Virus record (IMG/VR): IMGVR_UViG_3300007214_000006
DNA length: 64,000 nucleotides
Source of the DNA: a virus
Taxonomy: Duplodnaviria; Caudoviricetes
Reading direction: 5' to 3' (one strand)
A program made the position numbers and the translations under genes. A model generated the notes under the pieces. It saw nothing but the letters and a program-made list of their open reading frames with translations. It made no database searches and had not been told where the DNA came from. How positions within the stretch are numbered: position 1 is the stretch's first letter; every line of letters starts with the position of its first letter. Positions 17,628 to 35,190 of this stretch are shown piece by piece.

Positions 17628-18356
17628 TTGAAAAAAAATAATAAAACTGGTAAAAATAAACAAAAAATTATTGATGCAACAAATTCTATTCAGCCAAACA
17701 TATCAACATATAGGAATAAATTAAAACCAAGAACAGAAAATCAAAAAAATTATATTAGATCAGTCTTAGATAATACTATCACGTTTTGTCAAGGATTAGC
17801 TGGTAGTGGCAAAACACATATAGCTATAGGTATGGCTATAGAATTTTTACTAGAAAATAAAATCAATAAGATTATTATAACTAGGCCGGTACTGGAAGCT
17901 GGAGAAAAAATAGGATATTTACCAGGATCAGCAGAAGAAAAATTACATCCATATCTTTTACCAATTATAGATGAAATTCATTATTTTATAAATCCAGCAC
18001 AATATGCTGCTTTTAAACTAAATAATAAAATAGAGGTTGTACCACTTGGACTTATGCGGGGTAGAAATTTTCATAACGCTTTTATTGTTGCTGATGAATG
18101 TCAAAATGCGTCTTACGAACAATTAAAAATGTTATTAACAAGAACTGGCCAACAAAGTAAAATGGTACTTACCGGAGATATAGGACAATCTGACCTCAGT
18201 AGGCATTTGCAGGGTGGTTTTATTACGATGATAGAAGCTCTTAATGGTGTTAATGGAATAGGATATTGTAAATTAGAGTCATCTGATATTGTTAGAAATC
18301 CTATAATATCAGATATTTTACTAAGACTAGATGATTATGAAAGAAATAAATCATAA
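17628..18356 (+). CDS. phoH: PhoH-family ATPase
   Basis: TTG start after AGAGG; GLAGSGKT, TRPVLEAGEKIGYLPG, MRGRNF, ADECQN, GDIGQSD. Confidence 0.95.
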   Translation: MKKNNKTGKNKQKIIDATNSIQPNISTYRNKLKPRTENQKNYIRSVLDNTITFCQGLAGSGKTHIAIGMAIEFLLENKINKIIITRPVLEAGEKIGYLPGSAEEKLHPYLLPIIDEIHYFINPAQYAAFKLNNKIEVVPLGLMRGRNFHNAFIVADECQNASYEQLKMLLTRTGQQSKMVLTGDIGQSDLSRHLQGGFITMIEALNGVNGIGYCKLESSDIVRNPIISDILLRLDDYERNKS

Positions 18357-18939
18357 GCAATGTTTATTATTAAATGCTGATTATACTCCGATACGGATTA
18401 TATCATGGAAAAAGGCTATTGTATGGTCTATGAAATACGAACCGAACCATAAATATGGTATCGAGATTATATCTTATTATCAAGATGAAGTTATACGTGG
18501 CGCGTGTGGTAAAAACTATTTGGTTCCTGCTGTTGCTAGAACCAGGCATTTCTTCAATCTATATAATAAAAATATTAATTTTTCACGAAAAAATTTATTT
18601 ATCAGAGATGATTATACCTGTCAATATTGTGGTAAACAATTTCCTGTATCTCAATTAACATATGATCATATTATTCCAAAAAGCAGATTTGATATTCACA
18701 CCAAACATAAATGCACAAATTGGATTAATATCGTAACATGCTGTTGGCAATGTAATCATAAAAAAGGAAATAAAACACCAAAAGAAGCAAATATGAAATT
18801 GCTTAATCAGCCTATAATTCCAAAATATTGTGCCGTATACTTGCCCTGGTACCGAGATCTATTTACTATAAATAACAGTTTTCCTGAATGGAATCCATTT
18901 ATAAAGGGTTTGATTAATAATGAAAATAAATGTATCTGA
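18331..18939 (+). CDS. HNH endonuclease (McrA-like)
   Basis: LLLNADY, RKNLFIRDDYTCQYC, TYDHIIP, WINIVTCCWQCNHKKG. Confidence 0.9.
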   Translation: MIMKEINHKQCLLLNADYTPIRIISWKKAIVWSMKYEPNHKYGIEIISYYQDEVIRGACGKNYLVPAVARTRHFFNLYNKNINFSRKNLFIRDDYTCQYCGKQFPVSQLTYDHIIPKSRFDIHTKHKCTNWINIVTCCWQCNHKKGNKTPKEANMKLLNQPIIPKYCAVYLPWYRDLFTINNSFPEWNPFIKGLINNENKCI

Positions 18940-26589: not shown

Positions 26590-27632
26590 TAACATATTTT
26601 AGATCGTCTAGCTTTAATGCTCATTCTATGTGCGAGCAGCAATATTTTATAGAATATGTTTTGGGTTGGAGAGGACCGTCTGGACAAAAGGCGGACAAAG
26701 GAACAATAGTACACAAAGTGCTAGAAGTATTAGCCGTTATTAAAAAAGCTAAACAAGATAATTTAACATTTATATGCGATGATATCATTGGTAATATTGA
26801 TATAAATAACTATAATCTTGATAATTTAATAGATATAATATACAACCATTACTCACTATCAGCAAAACATCATAAATGGTATCCAAAAGACAAAAAAGAC
26901 TGTGCAGAATGGGTTTATAAGGCTATTAATTTTAATGATGGTATGTTCGATCCCAGAAATAGAAATATTTTGGAACCAGAGCAGCATTTTGATTTTACTA
27001 TAAATAAATCTTGGTCACAATATTCTTATAAAACACCAGATGGAGTTATTTCAGGTAATCTGGCCCTAAAAGGAACTATAGACTTAATAACGTTAGTTAA
27101 TGAAAAAACTATAGAAATTATCGATTGGAAAACAGGAAAAAGATTAGATTGGGCTACTGGCCAAGAAAAAACTCAAGAAAAACTAGAAAATGATCCTCAA
27201 TTAAGAATATATCATTATGCTATCAGTCATTTGTATCCTCAGATCGAACATATAATTTTTTCTATATATTTTATAAATGATGGCGGACCATTCTCTATAT
27301 GTTTTGATAAAAATGATCTTCAAAAAACAGAAGATATGCTAAGACAAAAATTTGATATAATAAAGTCTGCAAAAAGGCCAAAATTGCACAAAAGCTGGAT
27401 GTGTAATAAACTATGTCATTTTGGCAAAACAAATTTTTCTGATTCAAGCATATTGCCTATATTAGAATACAGAGATGGGCAAATATGCAAACAGGGCGAA
27501 TTTATGACTAAATGTGAACAAATCAAACATGATTTAGAGTTGCATGGTATGGATTTTGTTGTACAATCATATAAGCATCCAAATCATTCATTTGGAAAAT
27601 ATAAAGCACCAGGAAGTATAGAAGGAGAATAA
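26583..27632 (+). CDS. PD-(D/E)XK (RecB/Cas4-like) exonuclease, probable AUU start
   Basis: RSSSF..HSMC..QY, KGTIVHKVLE, GTIDLI, IIDWKTG, QLRIY, CNKLC; SD AAGGAG 26568-26573 is 9 nt before in-frame ATT 26583; ORF track uses ATG 26628. Confidence 0.82.
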   Translation: MIITYFRSSSFNAHSMCEQQYFIEYVLGWRGPSGQKADKGTIVHKVLEVLAVIKKAKQDNLTFICDDIIGNIDINNYNLDNLIDIIYNHYSLSAKHHKWYPKDKKDCAEWVYKAINFNDGMFDPRNRNILEPEQHFDFTINKSWSQYSYKTPDGVISGNLALKGTIDLITLVNEKTIEIIDWKTGKRLDWATGQEKTQEKLENDPQLRIYHYAISHLYPQIEHIIFSIYFINDGGPFSICFDKNDLQKTEDMLRQKFDIIKSAKRPKLHKSWMCNKLCHFGKTNFSDSSILPILEYRDGQICKQGEFMTKCEQIKHDLELHGMDFVVQSYKHPNHSFGKYKAPGSIEGE

Positions 27633-27635
27633 GTA

Positions 27636-29513
27636 ATGGGCGTGATTAAGGAATATGTTCCTTTACACGTCCATTCCTAAGTGACTCATTATTCACTTTT
27701 GGATGGACTAAGTAAACCAGAACAAATAGCTAAACGATGTCAAAAAATAGGAGCAAGCACGTGTGCAATAACGGATCACGGGACCATATCCGGATCCGTT
27801 CAGTTTTATGCTTCTATGAAAAAATACGGAATTAAACCAATCCTAGGATGCGAATTATATATCAGTCATAATGATTGTATGATAAAAAGTCCAGATAATT
27901 CAAAATTAAGTCATTTCATAATTTTAGCTAAAAACTATGAGGGTTGGAAATCTTTAATAAAAATAGTATCTAAAACAAATACTCCTGATGTATTTTATCA
28001 TAAGCCAAGAATAGATATAGATACTTTGTTACCATACCTGGATGGCAATATTATTGGTTTTGCTGGTCATCTCGGTTCTGTTATAGCTAACGCCATAAAA
28101 GACCAGGATTCGAACTATACAATCAATTTGATTCAAAAATTAAAAGATGGTTTTGGTGAGAATAATTTTTTTCTTGAGTCTCAACTAATAGATCAAGAAC
28201 AAAATATTGATCAAATTAATTTAACAAAAGAAGTTAGAAGACTGGCACAGATCACAAAAACAAAAGTCATAGCTACTCCAGATGCTCATTATTGCGAATC
28301 TGATGATGCTGTTGATCAAAGAATTTTATTATGCAATAATTTAAAAACAACATTAACAGAGATAAATAGAAAGCTTATTGCAGATGAAGAGGCTCCTATG
28401 TCATGTTTTTTTAAATCTGATAAGTATCATATTCCAAATTTTGACGAAATGAATAATATACATTCTACAGAAGAGCTGTATAATACGATAGAATTAGCAA
28501 ATATGTGCGAAGATTATGATATTACAAATAAGCCAATGCTGCCTTTATTTAAATGTCCTAATTCTGATACTCCAGATGCATATCTTAGGCAATTATGTCG
28601 TAATGGATGGAAAGAAAAAATAGCCAATAATATACCTTCAAATATACAGGAAGAATATGTTGATAGAATCAAATACGAATTATCTGTTTTACAGGGCGCT
28701 GGGTTGTCCAGCTATTTTTTAATAGTGCAGGACATAGTGAACTATGTATCTTCTAATGGGTGGCTTCCTGGTCCCGGAAGAGGTAGCGCTGCTGGTTGTC
28801 TTGTGTCTTATCTAATAGGAATAACAAGTATAGATCCGATAAAAAATAATTTAATTTTTGAAAGATTCTATAATGCAGGAAGGAATACGAGCGACAGAGT
28901 TTCTATGCCAGATATAGATGTTGATGTTCCGATCAACAAACGAGAAGCTGTAGTAGAATATATAAAAAATAAATATGGCCATGATAAAGTGTCTCAAATG
29001 ATTACTTTTAATACGATGAAAGGTCGTGGCGCTCTTAAAGAAGTCCTTAGAGTTTATGGAAATATATCTTTTGACGAAATGAATAAAATTACAAAATACA
29101 TACCAGATGAAGCAAAAATAGCGGATGAATTACAAGAAATGAAAGAAGAAACAGGAGAGGCGTCCATTATTAGATGGGCTTTAGAAAATAATGTTGACAA
29201 ACTCAAGGAATGGTGTTATTTATTAGATGACGGTACGCTCGCCGGACCGCTTGCTAAAAGATTCGAACAAGCAATTAGACTAGAAGGAACCAAATCTAAT
29301 CAGTCAAAGCATGCTGCTGGAGTCGTTATATCTCAAGAAAAATTATCGGAGATTTGCCCAATGGTTTATGATAGTAAAAATAAACAGCTAATAGCAGGAA
29401 TGGAAATGCAAGATCTAGAATCTTTAGGTGTAATCAAATTTGATATCCTAGGCATAGCCATGTTAGATAAAATTATGAATATTTCACAAATATTAGCTAA
29501 AGAAGGAGTTTAA
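27636..29513 (+). CDS. dnaE: DNA polymerase III alpha, N-terminal half (PHP + palm/thumb), with an in-frame TAA at 27678-27680
   Basis: YVPLHVHS*VTHYSLLDG, ITDHG, ILGCE, TPDAHY, YFLIVQD, GPGRGSAAG, PDIDVD, KHAAGVVI, KFDILG. Confidence 0.9.
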
Positions 29514-29514
29514 A

Positions 29515-29694
29515 ATGAATAAAGTTTTTTCAGAATTAGCTATCGGAGATAGATTTGAACTAAATGGAAATAGTTATATTAAAATTCAAGAAGTAAGAGT
29601 TAGTTGTTGCAGATCAATAAATGCTCAGGACGCAAATAATCCGTCGAGCAAAACGTTTGTGCAAGCAACAACCACGGTGACAGTTAATGCCTAA
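29515..29694 (+). CDS. 59-aa hypothetical protein between the dnaE halves (below the ORF-track cutoff)
   Basis: SD AAGGAG (29502-29507); MNKVFSELAIGDRFELNGNSYIK...VRVSCCRSINA; overlaps the next ATG. Confidence 0.7.
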   Translation: MNKVFSELAIGDRFELNGNSYIKIQEVRVSCCRSINAQDANNPSSKTFVQATTTVTVNA

Positions 29695-30388
29695 TTTTCA
29701 AAAAATATGTGTGTTTGATATGGAAACTGACGGGGTTAACCCTGATCAGTGTAGTCCTGTGCAGATTGCTGCTGTTATTGTAGATCCAATAAAACTAGAA
29801 ATAGTTAAAGATTCCGAATTTAATATTAATTTAAAGCCAGAATTATTAGAAAATAATATAAGTTACAAATATGAAGATAGTGATGTTCTTGACTTTCATT
29901 CAAAAGTACGAGGTTGCTCCAAGTCTTCTATATTAGAATCTTGGGGCAAATACCAATCACAAGAGGCTGGTTGGAAAATGTTCGTTTCGTATCTTGAAAT
30001 GTATCATACAAAGTCTAACGGAACTAAAAAATCCTGCTTTTCTGCACCAATAGCTGCTGGCTTTAATATAAATAAATTTGATTTACGAATTATAGAGAGG
30101 CTTAGTGTAAAATATAATTCTCTAAATAAAGAAGGCAGATCCTCGTTGTTTTATCCCAGAGATGTAATTGATGTAATGAATCTTTTATTTTATTGGTTTG
30201 AATATAATAATGAACTTAAAAACTATACACTAGATAATCTAAGAGATTATTTGGGTATAGATAAAACTAATGCTCATGATGCATTAAAAGATGTGAAGGA
30301 CACAGCCAATATCATGATAAGGTTTTTAAAATTGCATAGAAACCTGTCTAATAAAGTTAAATTTAAAGGATCTTTTGTAAATGCCTAA
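29687..30388 (+). CDS. DEDDh 3'-5' exonuclease (DnaQ/epsilon-like)
   Basis: Exo I VFDMETDG, Exo II AGFNINKFD, Exo III HDALKD. Confidence 0.9.
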   Translation: MPNFQKICVFDMETDGVNPDQCSPVQIAAVIVDPIKLEIVKDSEFNINLKPELLENNISYKYEDSDVLDFHSKVRGCSKSSILESWGKYQSQEAGWKMFVSYLEMYHTKSNGTKKSCFSAPIAAGFNINKFDLRIIERLSVKYNSLNKEGRSSLFYPRDVIDVMNLLFYWFEYNNELKNYTLDNLRDYLGIDKTNAHDALKDVKDTANIMIRFLKLHRNLSNKVKFKGSFVNA

Positions 30389-31997
30389 ATGGTCTTTTGA
30401 TTGCGGATGTTGTTTTGATATCATTGAGAATAATGGAGAGAAACATAAGTTATTATTTTCTCCAAAAATTGAATCTATAAATTTATGTTGCGCTAAAACA
30501 TGGGAATTGATTTCTTCTGGAAACACTAAAGGATGTTTCCAGTTAGAATCTAGATTAGGCCAAATGATGGCTAAAAAATTAAAACCAGAAAATATAGAAC
30601 AATTATCTGGACTAATCAGTATACTTAGGCCGGGATGCCTAGAAGCAATAAGAGATGGGAAAAGCGTAACAAACCATTATATAGATAAAAAAAATGGTCT
30701 GGAATCTATTAATTATTTCCATGAGGCTCTGGAGACCTCATTAAGTACCACCTACGGGGAAATGATATACCAAGAACAGGCTATGTCTATCGCAAAAGAT
30801 TTGGCTGGATTCGATTTACAAGAAGCAGATTCTTTAAGAAAAGCTATCGGAAAAAAGAAACCAGAAGAAATGGCAAAAGTTAAACAAAAATTTTTAGATG
30901 GCACAAAAAAACTTAATATAGTCAATCAAAAAGAAGCAGAAGAAATCTTTGGATGGATAGAAAAAAGTCAAAGATATTCATTCAATAAATCTCACGGTAT
31001 TTCATATGCTATGAACGCATATTTATCGGCGTATGCTAAAGCCCATTTTCCGGAAGCCTTTTTTGTTTCTTATTTAAAATTTGCTAAGGACAAAATAGAC
31101 CCACAACAAGAAATCAAAGAATTAATTAAAAATGCCACGGAAATGGATATAAATATCTGTCTGCCAGATTTAAGACTACAAAACTCTAATTTCGGAATCT
31201 TTAATAATAAAATTTATTTTGGTTTAACAGACATAAAGGGTGTTGGGGACTCAGTGTTTGCTAAATTATCGGATATATGTAAAAATATTGATCTATATAA
31301 AATATCATGGACTGAACTGCTTATCAAAATTTTATTAAATATAAATTCCACAGCGGCTAAAGCTTTGATTTCTAGCGGAGCAATTGATTATCTTAATAAA
31401 AATCGTACAGAAATGTTGTTTGATCTAGAAATAATAAGCTCTCTTACTAAAAAAGAATTAGAATACATTGCGCCTATACTATCGAACACCATTACCTTAA
31501 AAGATATTATGAGTTATCTTATTAATTACTCAAAAGTGAATACAAAAAGAAAACAAGCAATACAAAGCTTATTGCAAACTATTAAAAATCCGCCGTATTC
31601 CTTAATAGATAAAATAGAATGGTTAGCAGATACGGAGTCATCTTTATTGGGTACGGCGATCTCTTGCTCAAAATTAGACACATATGACATAGAAATGACA
31701 AACACAGATTGCAAAACATTTAAAACTACAAATAGTATTTCTAATATTATAATGGCTGGAGAAATTACTAATATTAATATTATAAAAACAAAAAAAGGAA
31801 AATTATCCGGTCAAGAAATGTCTTTTGTCTCAATAGAAGATCAAACTGGTTCTCTAGATTCTGTGATATTTTTTCCAGAAATCTATGCAAAATATAAACA
31901 CCATTTATTCGAAAATAATATTTTAATATTTGTGGGAAATAAGAGCAAAACAAAGGATGGTTTGATTGTGGATAAGTGTTTTGTGCCTAGGTCTTGA
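30381..31997 (+). CDS. dnaE: DNA polymerase III alpha, C-terminal half (fingers, HhH, OB fold)
   Basis: TKGCFQLES, ILRPG, MIYQEQAM, ADSLRKAIGKKK, YSFNKSH, FGLTDIKGVG, OB fold AGEI...KTKKG..MSFVSIEDQTG. Confidence 0.92.
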   Translation: MPKWSFDCGCCFDIIENNGEKHKLLFSPKIESINLCCAKTWELISSGNTKGCFQLESRLGQMMAKKLKPENIEQLSGLISILRPGCLEAIRDGKSVTNHYIDKKNGLESINYFHEALETSLSTTYGEMIYQEQAMSIAKDLAGFDLQEADSLRKAIGKKKPEEMAKVKQKFLDGTKKLNIVNQKEAEEIFGWIEKSQRYSFNKSHGISYAMNAYLSAYAKAHFPEAFFVSYLKFAKDKIDPQQEIKELIKNATEMDINICLPDLRLQNSNFGIFNNKIYFGLTDIKGVGDSVFAKLSDICKNIDLYKISWTELLIKILLNINSTAAKALISSGAIDYLNKNRTEMLFDLEIISSLTKKELEYIAPILSNTITLKDIMSYLINYSKVNTKRKQAIQSLLQTIKNPPYSLIDKIEWLADTESSLLGTAISCSKLDTYDIEMTNTDCKTFKTTNSISNIIMAGEITNINIIKTKKGKLSGQEMSFVSIEDQTGSLDSVIFFPEIYAKYKHHLFENNILIFVGNKSKTKDGLIVDKCFVPRS

Positions 31998-32021: not shown

Positions 32022-32067
32022 ATAACTGTTAGTCAATCGTTTGTTACTTTTTTTTGAGGAGATAATT

Positions 32068-32433
32068 ATGAATATAACTTTGTTAAAGGGTAATCTTGCT
32101 AGGGATCCAGAACTACGAACAGTATCAACTGGAGGAAAACAAACCTCTGTTGTTAATTTTACTGTTGCCACTTCTAGAGAATATACAAAAGCCAACGGAG
32201 AAAAGGATAAGATTACTTCTTTTATCAATTGCGAAGCATGGGATAGTGGTGCTGATGTTATTGCCTCTTCTTTTAAGAAAGGTGATTTGGTTCTAATAGA
32301 AGGTTCTTTGAGGAATGATTCTTGGGAAAAGGATGGTGTCAAGCACAGCACATTAAAGGTTAGAGTAAATAATTTTTCCAAGATTACAAAGCTTTCTAAG
32401 AACAATAAATCAGAAGAGGCTGTGGCATTCTGA
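32068..32433 (+). CDS. ssb: Single-stranded DNA-binding protein
   Basis: SD GAGGAG; GNLARDPELR, VVNFTVA, FINCEAW, KGDLVLIEGSLRNDSWEKDG; acidic tail EEAVAF. Confidence 0.95.
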   Translation: MNITLLKGNLARDPELRTVSTGGKQTSVVNFTVATSREYTKANGEKDKITSFINCEAWDSGADVIASSFKKGDLVLIEGSLRNDSWEKDGVKHSTLKVRVNNFSKITKLSKNNKSEEAVAF

Positions 32434-34185: not shown

Positions 34186-35190
34186 ATGAATATCTTATAT
34201 ATAGGACCATACAGAAATGAATTAGCTGTTGGGCATGCTTCTAGAAATATTATAAATACATTATCCGAGATAAGTAATCTAACAATAAGACCTATATATA
34301 TATCAAATAACAATTTTCCTATGTCCTTAAAACTGGACACTCTGGAACAAAAGGACACAAATAATGATTATGATATTATTATACAACATTGTTCTCCTTA
34401 TTTATTAAGTTCGCTATATGATAAAAATATCAAAGCTAAAAATATTGCTATTCCTATTATAAATAAAACAATCAATAAAAAACAATATGAAATTTTACTA
34501 TCTGATTTTGATAAAATATTAGCAGATGATGCGACTGTTGAATTGATATTAAGGTCTAATTATAGTTTAAATAATGTAGAGCTATTTAGATATAATATAA
34601 TAGACGATAAAAATAAAATACAAAAAATTAATTTAGATATCCATAATCAAAACAAAAAATTCTATTTTATAGGATCATTTTTTAGCAATAAACAGATTAT
34701 AAAAACTATTATCAAAAGCTTTTATTTTACTTTTGGTAATTCTACAGATATGTCTTTGATATTATTTATACTAGAAAATACCGAGGAATCAAAAGCAGAA
34801 TTAAATAAAATAATTGAAAATGTAAAAAAAGAACTAAATATAGTTGGAACAAATTATTGTCATAAAATTATTGTGAAAATATTGTCAGAAAATGACTTAT
34901 TGTCTGCTCATAATTCTTGTGATATATTTATTTCTTTATGTGACTCAGGCATAGAATCTAGTTTTAATAAAACAATAGCATCAACATACGGGAATTATAT
35001 TATAGACGAATCAAATACAAATATGTTCTACGATACCGATCCTGGGTATTTGGATACTTATTATTTTGGAGAAGTGAGATTAACAACGAATATTATCAGC
35101 TTATCTCAATCTATGGTAAATTCCCTTAATTCAACAACAAAAGCCAACACAAATACTGCTCAAACAATAGATAAAATCATATGTCAATAA
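34186..35190 (+). CDS. Divergent GT-B glycosyltransferase-like protein
   Basis: MNILYIGPY, YDIIIQH, KKFYFIG, AHNSCDIFISL. Confidence 0.6.
   Translation: MNILYIGPYRNELAVGHASRNIINTLSEISNLTIRPIYISNNNFPMSLKLDTLEQKDTNNDYDIIIQHCSPYLLSSLYDKNIKAKNIAIPIINKTINKKQYEILLSDFDKILADDATVELILRSNYSLNNVELFRYNIIDDKNKIQKINLDIHNQNKKFYFIGSFFSNKQIIKTIIKSFYFTFGNSTDMSLILFILENTEESKAELNKIIENVKKELNIVGTNYCHKIIVKILSENDLLSAHNSCDIFISLCDSGIESSFNKTIASTYGNYIIDESNTNMFYDTDPGYLDTYYFGEVRLTTNIISLSQSMVNSLNSTTKANTNTAQTIDKIICQ

Follow-up and report, generated by a model that had tools for sequence, protein, structure and literature searches.

An intein-less split DNA polymerase III alpha gene with a DnaQ-like exonuclease gene between its halves in a metagenomic phage sequence

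How can a phage obtain a working replicative polymerase when the gene for its catalytic subunit is broken in two and other genes lie between the pieces? This question is raised by a locus within a 64,000-nt stretch of phage DNA (hereafter the window), in which four plus-strand ORFs follow one another in the order DnaE N-half, orf59, exonuclease and DnaE C-half (Table 1). The phages concerned form a large group of uncultured freshwater jumbo phages with genomes of approximately 180-245 kb. The four coupled cistrons are likely to encode their sole replicative polymerase, which would be reassembled without an intein from a gene split by a relocation of single origin, and whose leader would be joined to the body by a ribosomal hop over a short gap. 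Its parts would be alpha-N (PHP, palm, thumb), a 59-aa beta-barrel protein, a DEDDh exonuclease and alpha-C (fingers, HhH, OB).

Table 1. Features of the split dnaE locus and its surroundings (positions in the window).
Feature	Position	Strand	Remarks
PD-(D/E)XK nuclease gene	26628-27632	+	directly upstream; syntenic in split and unsplit relatives
Shine-Dalgarno GAAGGAG of the dnaE leader	27621-27627	+	own Shine-Dalgarno site in insert-bearing alleles
14-codon leader, M G V I K E Y V P L H V H S	27636-27677	+	first PHP strand with HxH ligands
5' stem-loop	27636-27674	+	ATGGGCGTG (27636-27644) pairs with CACGTCCAT (27666-27674); inner stem AAGGAA/TTCCTT; RNAalifold
Proposed take-off codon TCC	27675-27677	+	last leader codon
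9-nt insert TAAGTGACT	27678-27686	+	begins with in-frame TAA; covered gap-free by an independent contig
Gap hairpin	27679-27698	+	AAGTGA of the insert pairs with TCACTT (downstream Ser-Leu codons); 8-nt loop
N-half mechanical ORF	27681-29513	+	610 aa; begins with GTG 27681
DnaE N-half body (PHP, palm with three catalytic Asp, thumb)	27687-29513	+	aligned to E. coli alpha 14-564
orf59, small beta-barrel protein (SH3/KOW-like)	29515-29694	+	59 aa; invariant Cys-Cys pair
DnaQ-like DEDDh 3'-5' exonuclease	29687-30388	+	233 aa; D11, E13, D132, H197, D202
DnaE C-half (fingers, HhH, OB-like)	30381-31997	+	538 aa
New N-terminal extension of the C-half	30381-30467	+	approx. 29 residues; invariant C8, G9, C10, F12, F26
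SSB gene	32041-32433	+	directly downstream, glycosyltransferase gene next; context

The four cistrons and the break in dnaE

In profile searches, the N-half matched the PHP domain (PF02811, E 5e-34) and the palm of Pol III alpha (PF07733, E 5e-76) and scored above the cut-off of TIGR00594; it contains PDIDVD and KFDILG and ends in ...ISQILAKEGV-stop. The C-half matched the fingers (PF17657, E 4e-44) and HHH_6 (E 8.5e-8), and its OB domain reached 25.2 bits, just under the cut-off of 27. It ends at about position 1052 of the 1146 positions of the NCBIfam alpha profile, the C-terminal part of which has no counterpart. The halves abut in both phrog_405 (51-615 and 612-1055) and PRK05673 (13-576 and 573-1052). 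On E. coli alpha, where the N-half ends at 564, the alignment of the C-half starts at 586, and the break lies in the variable linker from the last palm helix to the first finger helix (approx. 565-585). No family in PHROGs v4 ends or begins at this site.

Within the PHP body, D6, H31, E56, H76, H128, D199 and H201 are invariant, and the HxH pair (HVH) lies outside the main ORF in the separate leader. We take these nine positions to be the metal ligands of the PHP domain. An earlier note, made from the letters of the window, had described an N-half open from 27636, with PHP, three catalytic Asp and an end at ISQILAKEGV. Its domain content and its end hold; the open frame does not, since an in-frame TAA (27678-27680), which was overlooked, follows codon 14. 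Fingers and HhH were correctly assigned to the C-half, as was the OB domain, which is matched weakly. The note was right in placing a complete DnaQ-like DEDDh exonuclease between the halves, with all five residues present and invariant in 40 homologues, and in proposing translational coupling, which is borne out by the junctions: N-half and orf59 are joined as TAA, one base, ATG, and both orf59/exonuclease and exonuclease/C-half overlap by 8 nt (ATGCCTAA), the former overlap being near-universal among the loci compared. These stop/start overlaps and the Shine-Dalgarno sites would provide for a coupled, local synthesis of all partners. The two DnaE ORFs, parted by 867 nt with two other genes, do not form a single polypeptide, and this state is conserved.

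A survey of synteny, as suggested earlier, was conducted in IMG/VR with 235 relatives, and the gene order was read in the best 80 loci. All loci of sufficient length among these 80 have the order N-half, orf59, exonuclease, C-half, with varying relative frames, and it is also kept in far more diverged metagenome contigs, in which the exonuclease is merely 48-65% identical. Contigs from other metagenomes cross every junction gap-free. Across the four genes, dN/dS ranges from 0.035 to 0.083. The split is real, free of an intein and conserved, and the purifying selection is strong.

The exonuclease carries the Exo I (DxE), Exo II (D) and Exo III (Hx4D) motifs on an RNase H-like fold. Its model (pLDDT 88.8) resembles PolC-exo, DinG-exo, RNase T and epsilon, with matches to 2p1j, RNase T, 2gui and 2ido at a probability of 1.00, and the structural neighbours are not specifically epsilon. 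NCBIfam epsilon models scored 17-20 bits against cut-offs of 186-245; by these cut-offs it is a generic DnaQ-like enzyme and not an epsilon orthologue. An alpha-binding or clamp-binding motif was not identified in it. Most likely, it acts as an epsilon-like proofreader of the split polymerase.

For orf59, no match to a known family was found. F14, C31, C32, N36 and V55 are invariant, and the protein is modeled as a five-stranded all-beta barrel (pLDDT 92.6), with EF-P/eIF5A domain I as the nearest folds in a weak match (E approx. 0.03). As a predicted barrel, it is not of the theta/HOT type, i.e., a small helical epsilon binder. orf59 is confined to the split arrangement, and contiguous relatives lack both it and the extension of the C-half. 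Of its distant profile hits, all three that were checked lie beside a DnaE fragment, and in both contigs that are long enough the position is between N-half and exonuclease. orf59 and the Cys-containing extension of alpha-C arose with the split and may have an assembly or bridging role.

The stop-containing gap behind the leader

Most relatives lack the 9-nt insert following the leader, and within the split clade it is found in just a part of the members; relatives without it have, in place of a Shine-Dalgarno site of their own, an ATGA overlap with the gene before dnaE. Approximately 20 insert variants were found, with lengths of 9, 10, 11 and 12 nt and in all three frames. In all of them, a TCY is followed by TAA or TAG as the start of the insert, and TCN forms the end of 18 of the 20 types. 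Hence, the length of the gap is not bound to triplets while both flanks remain coding, as expected for a bypass. The leader is read as protein because its Leu is kept through five synonymous codons in relatives. In addition, synonymous sites are frozen from the leader to eight codons beyond the gap, and only in insert-bearing alleles.

Two RNA helices accompany the gap. The pairs of the 5' stem-loop are 100% paired in 34 sequences, with a GC-to-AU compensatory pair in eight and G.U in nine, and in the gap hairpin the third base of the Ser codon and its partner change together (A:U, U:A, G:C). Over both helices, 96.9% of the cells pair, compared to 33-55% with slid partners; the observed covariation was reached by none of 500 shuffles, and cognate pairs have a mean energy of -6.2 kcal/mol versus -2.6 kcal/mol for swapped ones. 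The hairpin loop contains the proposed landing triplet and the next codon. In the window, this triplet is ACT, before CAT 27687, and matches at two of three positions.

The insert is most likely a translational stop-hop gap, in which a peptidyl-tRNA(Ser) would hop from UCC to the triplet before CAU, aided by the 5' stem-loop and the gap hairpin. A complete alpha-N would need the HxH of the leader joined to the body across the gap. The same holds for the two proofreading centers (PHP and DEDDh) envisaged earlier, and the sequence allows such joining only via recoding across the stop-containing 9 nt.

Alternatively, no hop occurs, the leader is released at the TAA, and translation re-initiates at GTG 27681, producing an alpha-N without the HxH ligands; the PHP domain would then be inactive and the DEDDh enzyme the sole proofreader. 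The allele of the window would suit such a scheme, given that its 9 nt are in frame, a GTG comes right after the TAA and the landing triplet reads ACT where TCN is usual; furthermore, the L066 group has an ATG with a good Shine-Dalgarno site after the gap. However, sister variants of 10 and 11 nt lack a start codon in the body frame, several in all, and one variant has a TGA in this frame one codon before the body. Those variants nevertheless keep the leader, the stop, the hairpins and an intact downstream motif. Re-initiation also fits poorly with a leader which stays protein-coding through synonymous Leu changes and with a body in which the other seven PHP ligand positions are invariant, and a single mechanism serving frames 0, +1 and +2 is more economical than three. 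We therefore consider re-initiation, together with an inactive PHP domain, rather unlikely, though a real alternative for the allele of the window, and retain the hop as the preferred reading.

Origin of the split and proposed reassembly of the halves

Relatives with a contiguous dnaE exist at 43-57% identity and have the synteny PDDEXK-dnaE-SSB-GT in common with the split forms, in which the DnaE halves retain the ancestral order, strand and locus. In these contiguous relatives, an exonuclease homolog (37% identity) is located after the GT gene, approximately 2.7 kb downstream of dnaE. The tree groups the split forms in a single clade (SH-aLRT 95) among the unsplit ones, so the split stems from one relocation event, and no reversion was seen on it. 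Since close relatives have a contiguous dnaE and the exonuclease elsewhere in the module, the arrangement is derived rather than an ancestral design, by a single relocation of the phage's own proofreader gene. The ancestral dnaE would have been contiguous, with the exonuclease encoded separately some 2.7 kb downstream, and in one lineage the exonuclease gene and a new small ORF would have moved into the palm/fingers linker. The earlier note had held that relatives with one contiguous dnaE and a mobile insertion at this site would speak against its reading; contiguous relatives do exist, and the split is still genuine and was derived once.

The fracture could also be a tolerated scar of selfish DNA, left, e.g., by a homing endonuclease that once entered the linker and has since disappeared or been replaced, in which case the placement of exonuclease and orf59 between the halves would have no meaning beyond co-expression. 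Intein-less fractures by homing endonucleases are documented for Aeh1 nrdA, Aeromonas phage 25 gp43 and T4 39/60, as cited in PMC2677866. The dnaE of this phage group attracts mobile elements, namely inteins and the 5' gap module, the distribution of which requires seven to nine changes on the tree, and the break is in a variable linker. On the other hand, none of the 80 loci has an endonuclease gene in or beside it, and what was inserted is the exonuclease gene of the phage itself, present in a single copy and moved from 2.7 kb away. A single origin with no reversion seen, the conservation of orf59 and of the new C-half extension with their invariant residues, and the near-universal 8-nt overlap of orf59 and exonuclease argue against a mere scar as well. 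Both the scar and a placement without meaning thus appear improbable to us, and a relocation of the proofreader gene remains the favored explanation.

Covalent rejoining of the halves by a cryptic split intein or another trans-splicing element, as in cyanobacterial DnaE or the 'fractured genes', could be suspected, since dnaE genes of phage type that contain split inteins, with another gene in between, have been described (PMC2677866) and some contiguous relatives have inteins (PF14890 in P0009, P0019 and P0021; LAGLIDADG_3 in P0020). The earlier note had called the split intein-less and proposed an intein HMM search, and the result agrees with it: profile searches with the 60-aa pieces flanking the break gave no match to intein/HINT families even at E<=10. 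At the break, the profile alignments leave no more than some 10 residues of the N-half and some 28 of the C-half unaccounted for, which is too few for an intein half on either side. Where an N-intein would have to begin, no Cys/Ser is present, and the C junction lacks His-Asn. Neither is a homing endonuclease gene present between the halves; the intervening genes encode the DEDDh exonuclease and the small beta-barrel protein, the latter being free-standing and fused to neither extein. Trans-splicing is accordingly very improbable. As no intein is present, the halves would have to reassemble non-covalently, presumably across the palm/fingers interface.

Four relatives are complete (CheckV completeness 100%; three with terminal repeats). 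Each has one DnaE palm and one copy of the exonuclease, and PolA or PolB was found in none of the four. Because no polymerase other than the split one was found in these genomes, its gene can reasonably be read only as coding for a heteromeric enzyme; the physical co-assembly itself we infer. A misassembly, a frameshift error or a pseudogene in decay, for which one could point to the window being a single metagenome-derived sequence, is practically negligible and already refuted by the same four-gene order in all long-enough loci of the 80 from many samples and in differing frames, by the independent contigs bridging each junction, by dN/dS of 0.04-0.08 and by the lack of another polymerase in the complete relatives.

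Comparison with known systems

One of the closest arrangements is known from environmental phages, whose 'fractured genes' comprise three dnaE loci (Dassa et al. 2009, PMC2677866). There, too, the end of an intervening gene overlaps the start of the downstream half. However, at those loci split-intein parts are attached to the halves and the gene in between encodes a homing endonuclease, whereas here a DEDDh proofreader and a beta-barrel protein are found without an intein, and the break point, in the palm/fingers linker, is different. Intein-less splits by homing endonucleases, i.e., Aeh1 nrdA/mobE, Aeromonas phage 25 gp43 and T4 39/60 with mobA, are reassembled non-covalently to a working enzyme (as cited in PMC2677866 and bioRxiv 10.1101/2022.08.31.505936), as we propose here. 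The T4 split comes with a translational bypass, and our locus combines a split with a probable hop. In contrast to these cases, the inserted genes here are not selfish nucleases, and the arrangement, which arose once, has become fixed throughout a large clade; the hop would take place at the 5' end of the N-half, at a distance of approx. 1.8 kb from the break, and is limited to a part of the split clade.

DnaE in pieces is found elsewhere as well. The minimal Pol III alpha of group 2.2 jumbo phages, likewise split, has no PHP; its pieces are encoded far apart and it occurs together with a family B polymerase (Iyer et al. 2021, PMC7824862), unlike the locus described here. In cultured Bacillus phages such as Jayan and vB_BceM_WH1, the breaks are within the first 410-450 residues or so and thus elsewhere; Jayan has a 76-aa ORF between two pieces and an adjacent exonuclease gene. 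None of the group 2.2 jumbo phages, Jayan and vB_BceM_WH1 has an exonuclease between the halves.

Short bypasses are known from synthetic 'stop-hops' and from the 10-nt inserts of the Streptomyces phage Hau3 terminase (PMC5009743, PMC10732093). In comparison with these and with T4 gene 60, the present gap of 9-12 nt lies in the first PHP motif of dnaE, has no conserved Shine-Dalgarno site, follows a nascent peptide of just 14 residues and has no adjacent nuclease gene, and its hop is a prediction from the nucleotide sequence. Nevertheless, as in these systems, a gap beginning with a hard-to-decode or stop codon would be flanked by matched or near-matched codons, and a 5' stem-loop, a structure in the gap and a frame-free gap length are likewise shared, as is the patchy occurrence among relatives expected for a cassette.

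In cyanobacteria, the replicative alpha subunit is also encoded by two genes. Unlike at this locus, however, the halves are located at separate loci and are trans-spliced covalently. The cyanobacterial split point is the CFNKSH motif of the fingers and thus differs from the one described here. The E. coli Pol III core (alpha, epsilon, theta) and Gram-positive PolC likewise combine a C-family polymerase with a DnaQ-like DEDDh proofreader. PolC carries the exonuclease within its PHP domain and in the same reading frame, whereas at our locus it has a cistron of its own, placed between the palm and fingers parts. Theta/HOT proteins are helical, in contrast to the all-beta barrel modeled for orf59; nevertheless, a small third subunit accompanies epsilon in the E. 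coli core, and the small orf59 stands beside the exonuclease here.

DnaE encoded in two pieces without an intein

The earlier note had described a DnaE (Pol III alpha) encoded as two separate pieces, alpha-N (N-half) and alpha-C (C-half), with a DEDDh exonuclease gene (exo) and a 59-aa ORF (orf59) between them. Pfam matches of the N-half comprise PHP (E 5e-34) and the Pol III alpha palm (E 5e-76), while the C-half matched the fingers (E 4e-44) and HHH_6; the OB domain also assigned to this half was found at sub-threshold level only. exo yielded weak RNase_T-type matches and orf59 no match in the same search. ORF translation confirmed PDIDVD and KFDILG in the N-half as well as its C-terminal end ...ISQILAKEGV, and located TKGCFQLES approx. 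50 residues from the start of the C-half. The N-half start had to be revised: an ATG is present at 27636, where it had been placed, but its frame closes after 14 codons at a TAA (27678-27680) that had been missed.

Features of the split dnaE locus and of related loci (positions refer to the window unless a relative is named)
Feature	Location	Strand	Remark
Stop-containing 9-nt insert with two co-varying hairpins	27621-27713 (insert 27678-27686)		after codon 14 of dnaE
N-half ORF	27681-29513	+	610 aa, GTG start
orf59	29515-29694	+	59 aa
exo	29687-30388	+	233 aa
C-half ORF	30381-31997	+	538 aa
334-aa ORF	34186-35190		fills the exo position of unsplit relatives; no Pfam match
HNH endonuclease gene	18331-18939		HNH_5, E 3e-11
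exo in an unsplit relative	locus L122, 14101-14769		after the first glycosyltransferase following SSB

The junction sequences bear out the coupling reported before. N-half and orf59 are joined by TAA, one base and ATG, with AAGGAG 8 nt upstream, and an 8-nt overlap, ATGCCTAA, occurs at orf59/exo and again at exo/C-half. Both overlaps are formed by nine nucleotides, AATGCCTAA, identical at 29685-29693 and 30379-30387, and consequently orf59 and exo both end in VNA, and exo and the C-half both begin with MP. Among relatives, the orf59/exo overlap of 8 nt is near-universal, whereas the exo/C-half junction ranges from -26 to +24 nt. A target-site duplication as the source of the repeat at both exo borders was rejected, since only the first of these overlaps is conserved.

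On full-length models the halves abut, covering positions 51-615 and 612-1055 of phrog_405 and positions 13-576 and 573-1052 of NCBIfam PRK05673; against E. coli alpha, they align with residues 14-564 and then from 586. Thus, the break falls in the linker that joins the last palm helix to the first finger helix, without any loss. The break had been described as intein-less, and this holds: families of inteins, HINT and LAGLIDADG did not match the halves (E<=0.01), nor the 60-aa junction pieces or orf59 (E<=10), and the junction residues carry no intein-like Cys/Ser or His-Asn signature. The profiles leave approx. 10 residues unaligned at the N-half end and approx. 28 at the C-half start, too few for intein halves. 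In the wider phage group, some unsplit DnaE proteins of 1289-1396 aa (P0009, P0019, P0021) carry Intein_splicing, and another contiguous DnaE (P0020, 1077 aa) a LAGLIDADG_3 domain. Inteins occur elsewhere in dnaE of some contiguous relatives, and the gene is thus often targeted by mobile DNA in this phage group.

Conservation and origin of the split

An IMG/VR scan detected 235 relatives, and the best 80 of the 235 loci (60-90% protein identity, contigs <=244 kb) were inspected. A synteny survey had been proposed in the earlier note; in every sufficiently long locus of these best 80, the same four genes follow in the same order, with relative reading frames and junction spacings that vary. Two further public metagenomes, one sampled from a reservoir (X2) and one from an unlabelled run (X3), supplied contigs that read through the leader gap discussed below and through the junctions N-half/orf59/exo and exo/C-half, in each case without indels. 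dN/dS relative to the closest relatives is 0.035-0.083 for the four genes including orf59. A profile search with orf59 yielded 135 cluster representatives; all three distant matches that were looked up adjoin a DnaE fragment, and in both contigs long enough orf59 lies between a DnaE N-half and exo, in one case with an exo just 48% identical to that of the window. Four complete relatives (180-244 kb, CheckV completeness 100%, terminal repeats in three) have the split gene as their only DnaE palm (4/4) and exactly one exo each, and in none of them was a family A or B polymerase or a beta-clamp N-domain found. Conserved order, independent contigs, low dN/dS and the sole polymerase in complete relatives exclude an assembly artefact or a pseudogene. 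Hence the split first read from the window is genuine: the sole polymerase has undergone a clean, intein-less fission that is conserved, and the four genes are translationally coupled and under strong constraint. A nucleotide search of a phage collection returned a single short match (2% of the query), so that no cultured close relative is known. Scans of the window detected neither an Rfam family nor tRNA genes.

Relatives with one contiguous dnaE and a mobile insertion at this site had been named as evidence that would speak against the split replicase. A search for longer relatives did find contiguous DnaE proteins (1124-1154 aa, 43-57% identity), encoded by one gene, but the DNA inserted in the window is the phage's own exo plus orf59. 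Window and contiguous relatives share the gene order DnaB, primase, dNMP kinase, PD-(D/E)XK, dnaE, SSB and glycosyltransferases. In the contiguous relatives, exo has a homologue (37% identity) that retains all DEDDh residues and is located approx. 2.7 kb downstream, past the first glycosyltransferase, and orf59 is not detectable. In a DnaE tree whose root was set by more distant contiguous sequences (approx. 36-39% identity), the split forms are one clade (SH-aLRT 95) nested among contiguous forms, which indicates that the arrangement arose once. As judged from these sequence comparisons, the phage's own proofreader gene and a new small ORF moved into dnaE in a single event. The break site corresponds to a variable linker in the contiguous proteins (...LLARRG / xEFD...), and the first approx. 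20-28 residues of the C-half are new compared with them, with C8-G9-C10, F12 and F26 invariant.

A stop-containing gap after codon 14

The leader, i.e., the 14 codons from 27636, reads M G V I K E Y V P L H V H S and is followed by TAA, GTG ACT and the canonical HYSLLDG of the downstream body. Most relatives are uninterrupted here (M-K-x-Y-x-P-L-H-V-H-S-H-Y-S-L-L-D-G), and in roughly one locus out of four an insert follows the Ser codon directly. A pattern scan raised the number of distinct insert variants to approx. 20, with lengths of 9, 10, 11 and 12 nt, such that the body is in frame 0, +1 or +2 relative to the leader. All variants have TAA or TAG immediately past TCT/TCC, and 18 of 20 end with TCA/TCT/TCC right before the His codon, while the window type ends with ACT. 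In a freshwater-sediment run (X1), a variant co-occurs that differs by C>T at 27677 and by an insertion of two bases after 27684, which brings the gap to 11 nt; thus, different gap lengths coexist in one sample.

Peptidyl-tRNA(Ser) would hop over the stop-containing gap and thereby rejoin leader and body; such a stop-hop is the simplest single mechanism for the gap, and a probable one. In one 10-nt variant, a TGA in frame with the body stands one codon ahead of it, and several variants have no start codon in this frame, so neither simple frameshifting nor re-initiation can serve all of them. For the window's own ACT/GTG variant, re-initiation instead of a hop is a real alternative. In either case, the leader encodes the HxH pair and the body seven invariant positions, which we take to be the other metal ligands of PHP; a complete PHP site requires that both parts be joined.

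Insert-bearing alleles share a module of approx. 100 nt with its own SD and a longer leader, which opens with nine bases reverse-complementary to the His-Val-His codons, and the insert pairs with Ser-Leu codons downstream. Across 34 distinct sequences, 96.9% of the cells in both helices are standard pairs, versus 33-55% with slid partners. Compensatory changes occur in three pairs, and none of 500 shuffles reached the observed covariation, for an alignment that was fitted to the model; in independently folded variants, the partner of the Ser third base switches between A:U, U:A and G:C. Insert and flank fold with -6.2 kcal/mol when cognate versus -2.6 when swapped. Only in insert-bearing alleles are synonymous sites held fixed, from the leader through the eighth codon beyond the gap, and the leader Leu is kept via five synonymous codons. 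The module is scattered across the N-half tree (at least 7-9 changes) and always linked to the long leader, pointing to a cassette that moves by recombination. No nuclease gene adjoins it at the window locus. The HNH gene 9 kb upstream was rejected as its driver, being a core gene of insert-bearing and insert-less complete genomes alike (4/4).

The closest precedents for hopping comprise synthetic stop-hops, the 10-nt inserts of the phage Hau3 terminase and T4 gene 60, for which a role of pairing in the mRNA exiting the ribosome was proposed (PMC5009743, PMC10732093, bioRxiv 10.1101/2024.12.09.627546, 10.1101/2022.08.31.505936). According to a 2016 review, in-frame stop hopping was not known to occur naturally (PMC5009743), and a literature search for "stop-hop" returned unrelated papers only. 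The gap would add a natural series of many 9-12-nt stop-hop variants.

Exonuclease, orf59 and comparison with known fissions

exo is a DnaQ-like DEDDh exonuclease, complete as the earlier note had it: D11, E13, D132, H197 and D202 are invariant, and identity averages 75% per column. The predicted fold (pLDDT 88.8) resembles a broad range of DnaQ-like enzymes, namely the exonuclease domains of DinG and PolC, RNase T, and epsilon (TM 0.70-0.77 by target). Its scores are far under the NCBIfam epsilon cut-offs, and orthology to epsilon is not demonstrable. Fusions of exo to a longer protein ("Rosetta stone") were not found at E<=1e-10, a null result of little weight. The exo C-terminus (30320-30388) is basic and conserved even in an unsplit relative (...RFLKLHRNLSxKVKFKGSF); this tail might be a docking peptide for polymerase or clamp.

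orf59 has the invariant residues F14, C31, C32, N36 and V55 and is predicted to fold into a five-stranded SH3/KOW-like barrel (pLDDT 92.6) with weak structural neighbours, among them a weak resemblance to EF-P/eIF5A domain I. A link to the hop via this likeness was set aside, as orf59 accompanies the split in every genome, whether the gap is present or not. The theta subunit is helical and, therefore, differs in fold from the orf59 barrel. Invariant cysteines are found at C8, C10 and C37 of the C-half start (30381-30494) and as the C31-C32 pair of orf59 (29605-29610), and together they might form a shared metal site. A four-chain complex prediction (alpha-N 300-608, alpha-C 1-330, exo, with orf59 as partner) scored 0.00, which weighs neither way on binding.

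The DnaE halves would reassemble non-covalently, exo would act as proofreader of the split DnaE, and orf59 and the cysteine-containing C-half extension, both born with the split, may aid assembly. A more far-reaching model, which we regard as speculative and rather unlikely, is that a dedicated assembly module replaces the covalent continuity of the replicase: orf59 and the CxC...C extension of alpha-C would be an intermolecular, possibly metal-mediated clasp tying palm to fingers and seating exo near the primer terminus, the result being a PolC-like integrated proofreader from four polypeptides made in assembly order, and in some members the stop-hop would also determine how much alpha-N carries a complete PHP site.

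The split indicates that a C-family replicative polymerase tolerates a palm/fingers break without an intein. Kept by a very abundant freshwater phage group, it is a natural experiment on Pol III alpha modularity, and an insert composed of the phage's own proofreader and orf59 points to selection for making the subunits of a replicase together, in order and in stoichiometric amounts. In practical terms, alpha-epsilon assembly could be studied here in a minimal system of four parts, and the break is a candidate site for splitting the enzyme in engineering work.

That a phage replication gene is broken in two, with another gene lying in the break, is a known phenomenon. Known cases include fractured genes carrying split inteins, the endonuclease-split genes nrdA, gp43 and 39/60, the split DnaE of Bacillus phages Jayan and WH1, and, in some jumbo phages, a split minimal Pol III. 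In the cultured phage Jayan (L125, PQ299153.1 30698-34989), two CDSs of 410 and 634 aa encode DnaE; they flank a hypothetical ORF of 76 aa and are immediately followed by an exonuclease gene, a looser parallel with another break point. The known phage gene fissions cited here, those of Aeh1 nrdA, Aeromonas phage 25 gp43 and T4 genes 39/60, are attributed to selfish endonucleases, in contrast to the own proofreader and new 59-aa protein found here. The present arrangement is solidly established, and new in it are the break point, the involvement of neither intein nor endonuclease, the insertion of a relocated own proofreader together with a new conserved 59-aa protein, and the size of the clade in which it has become fixed.
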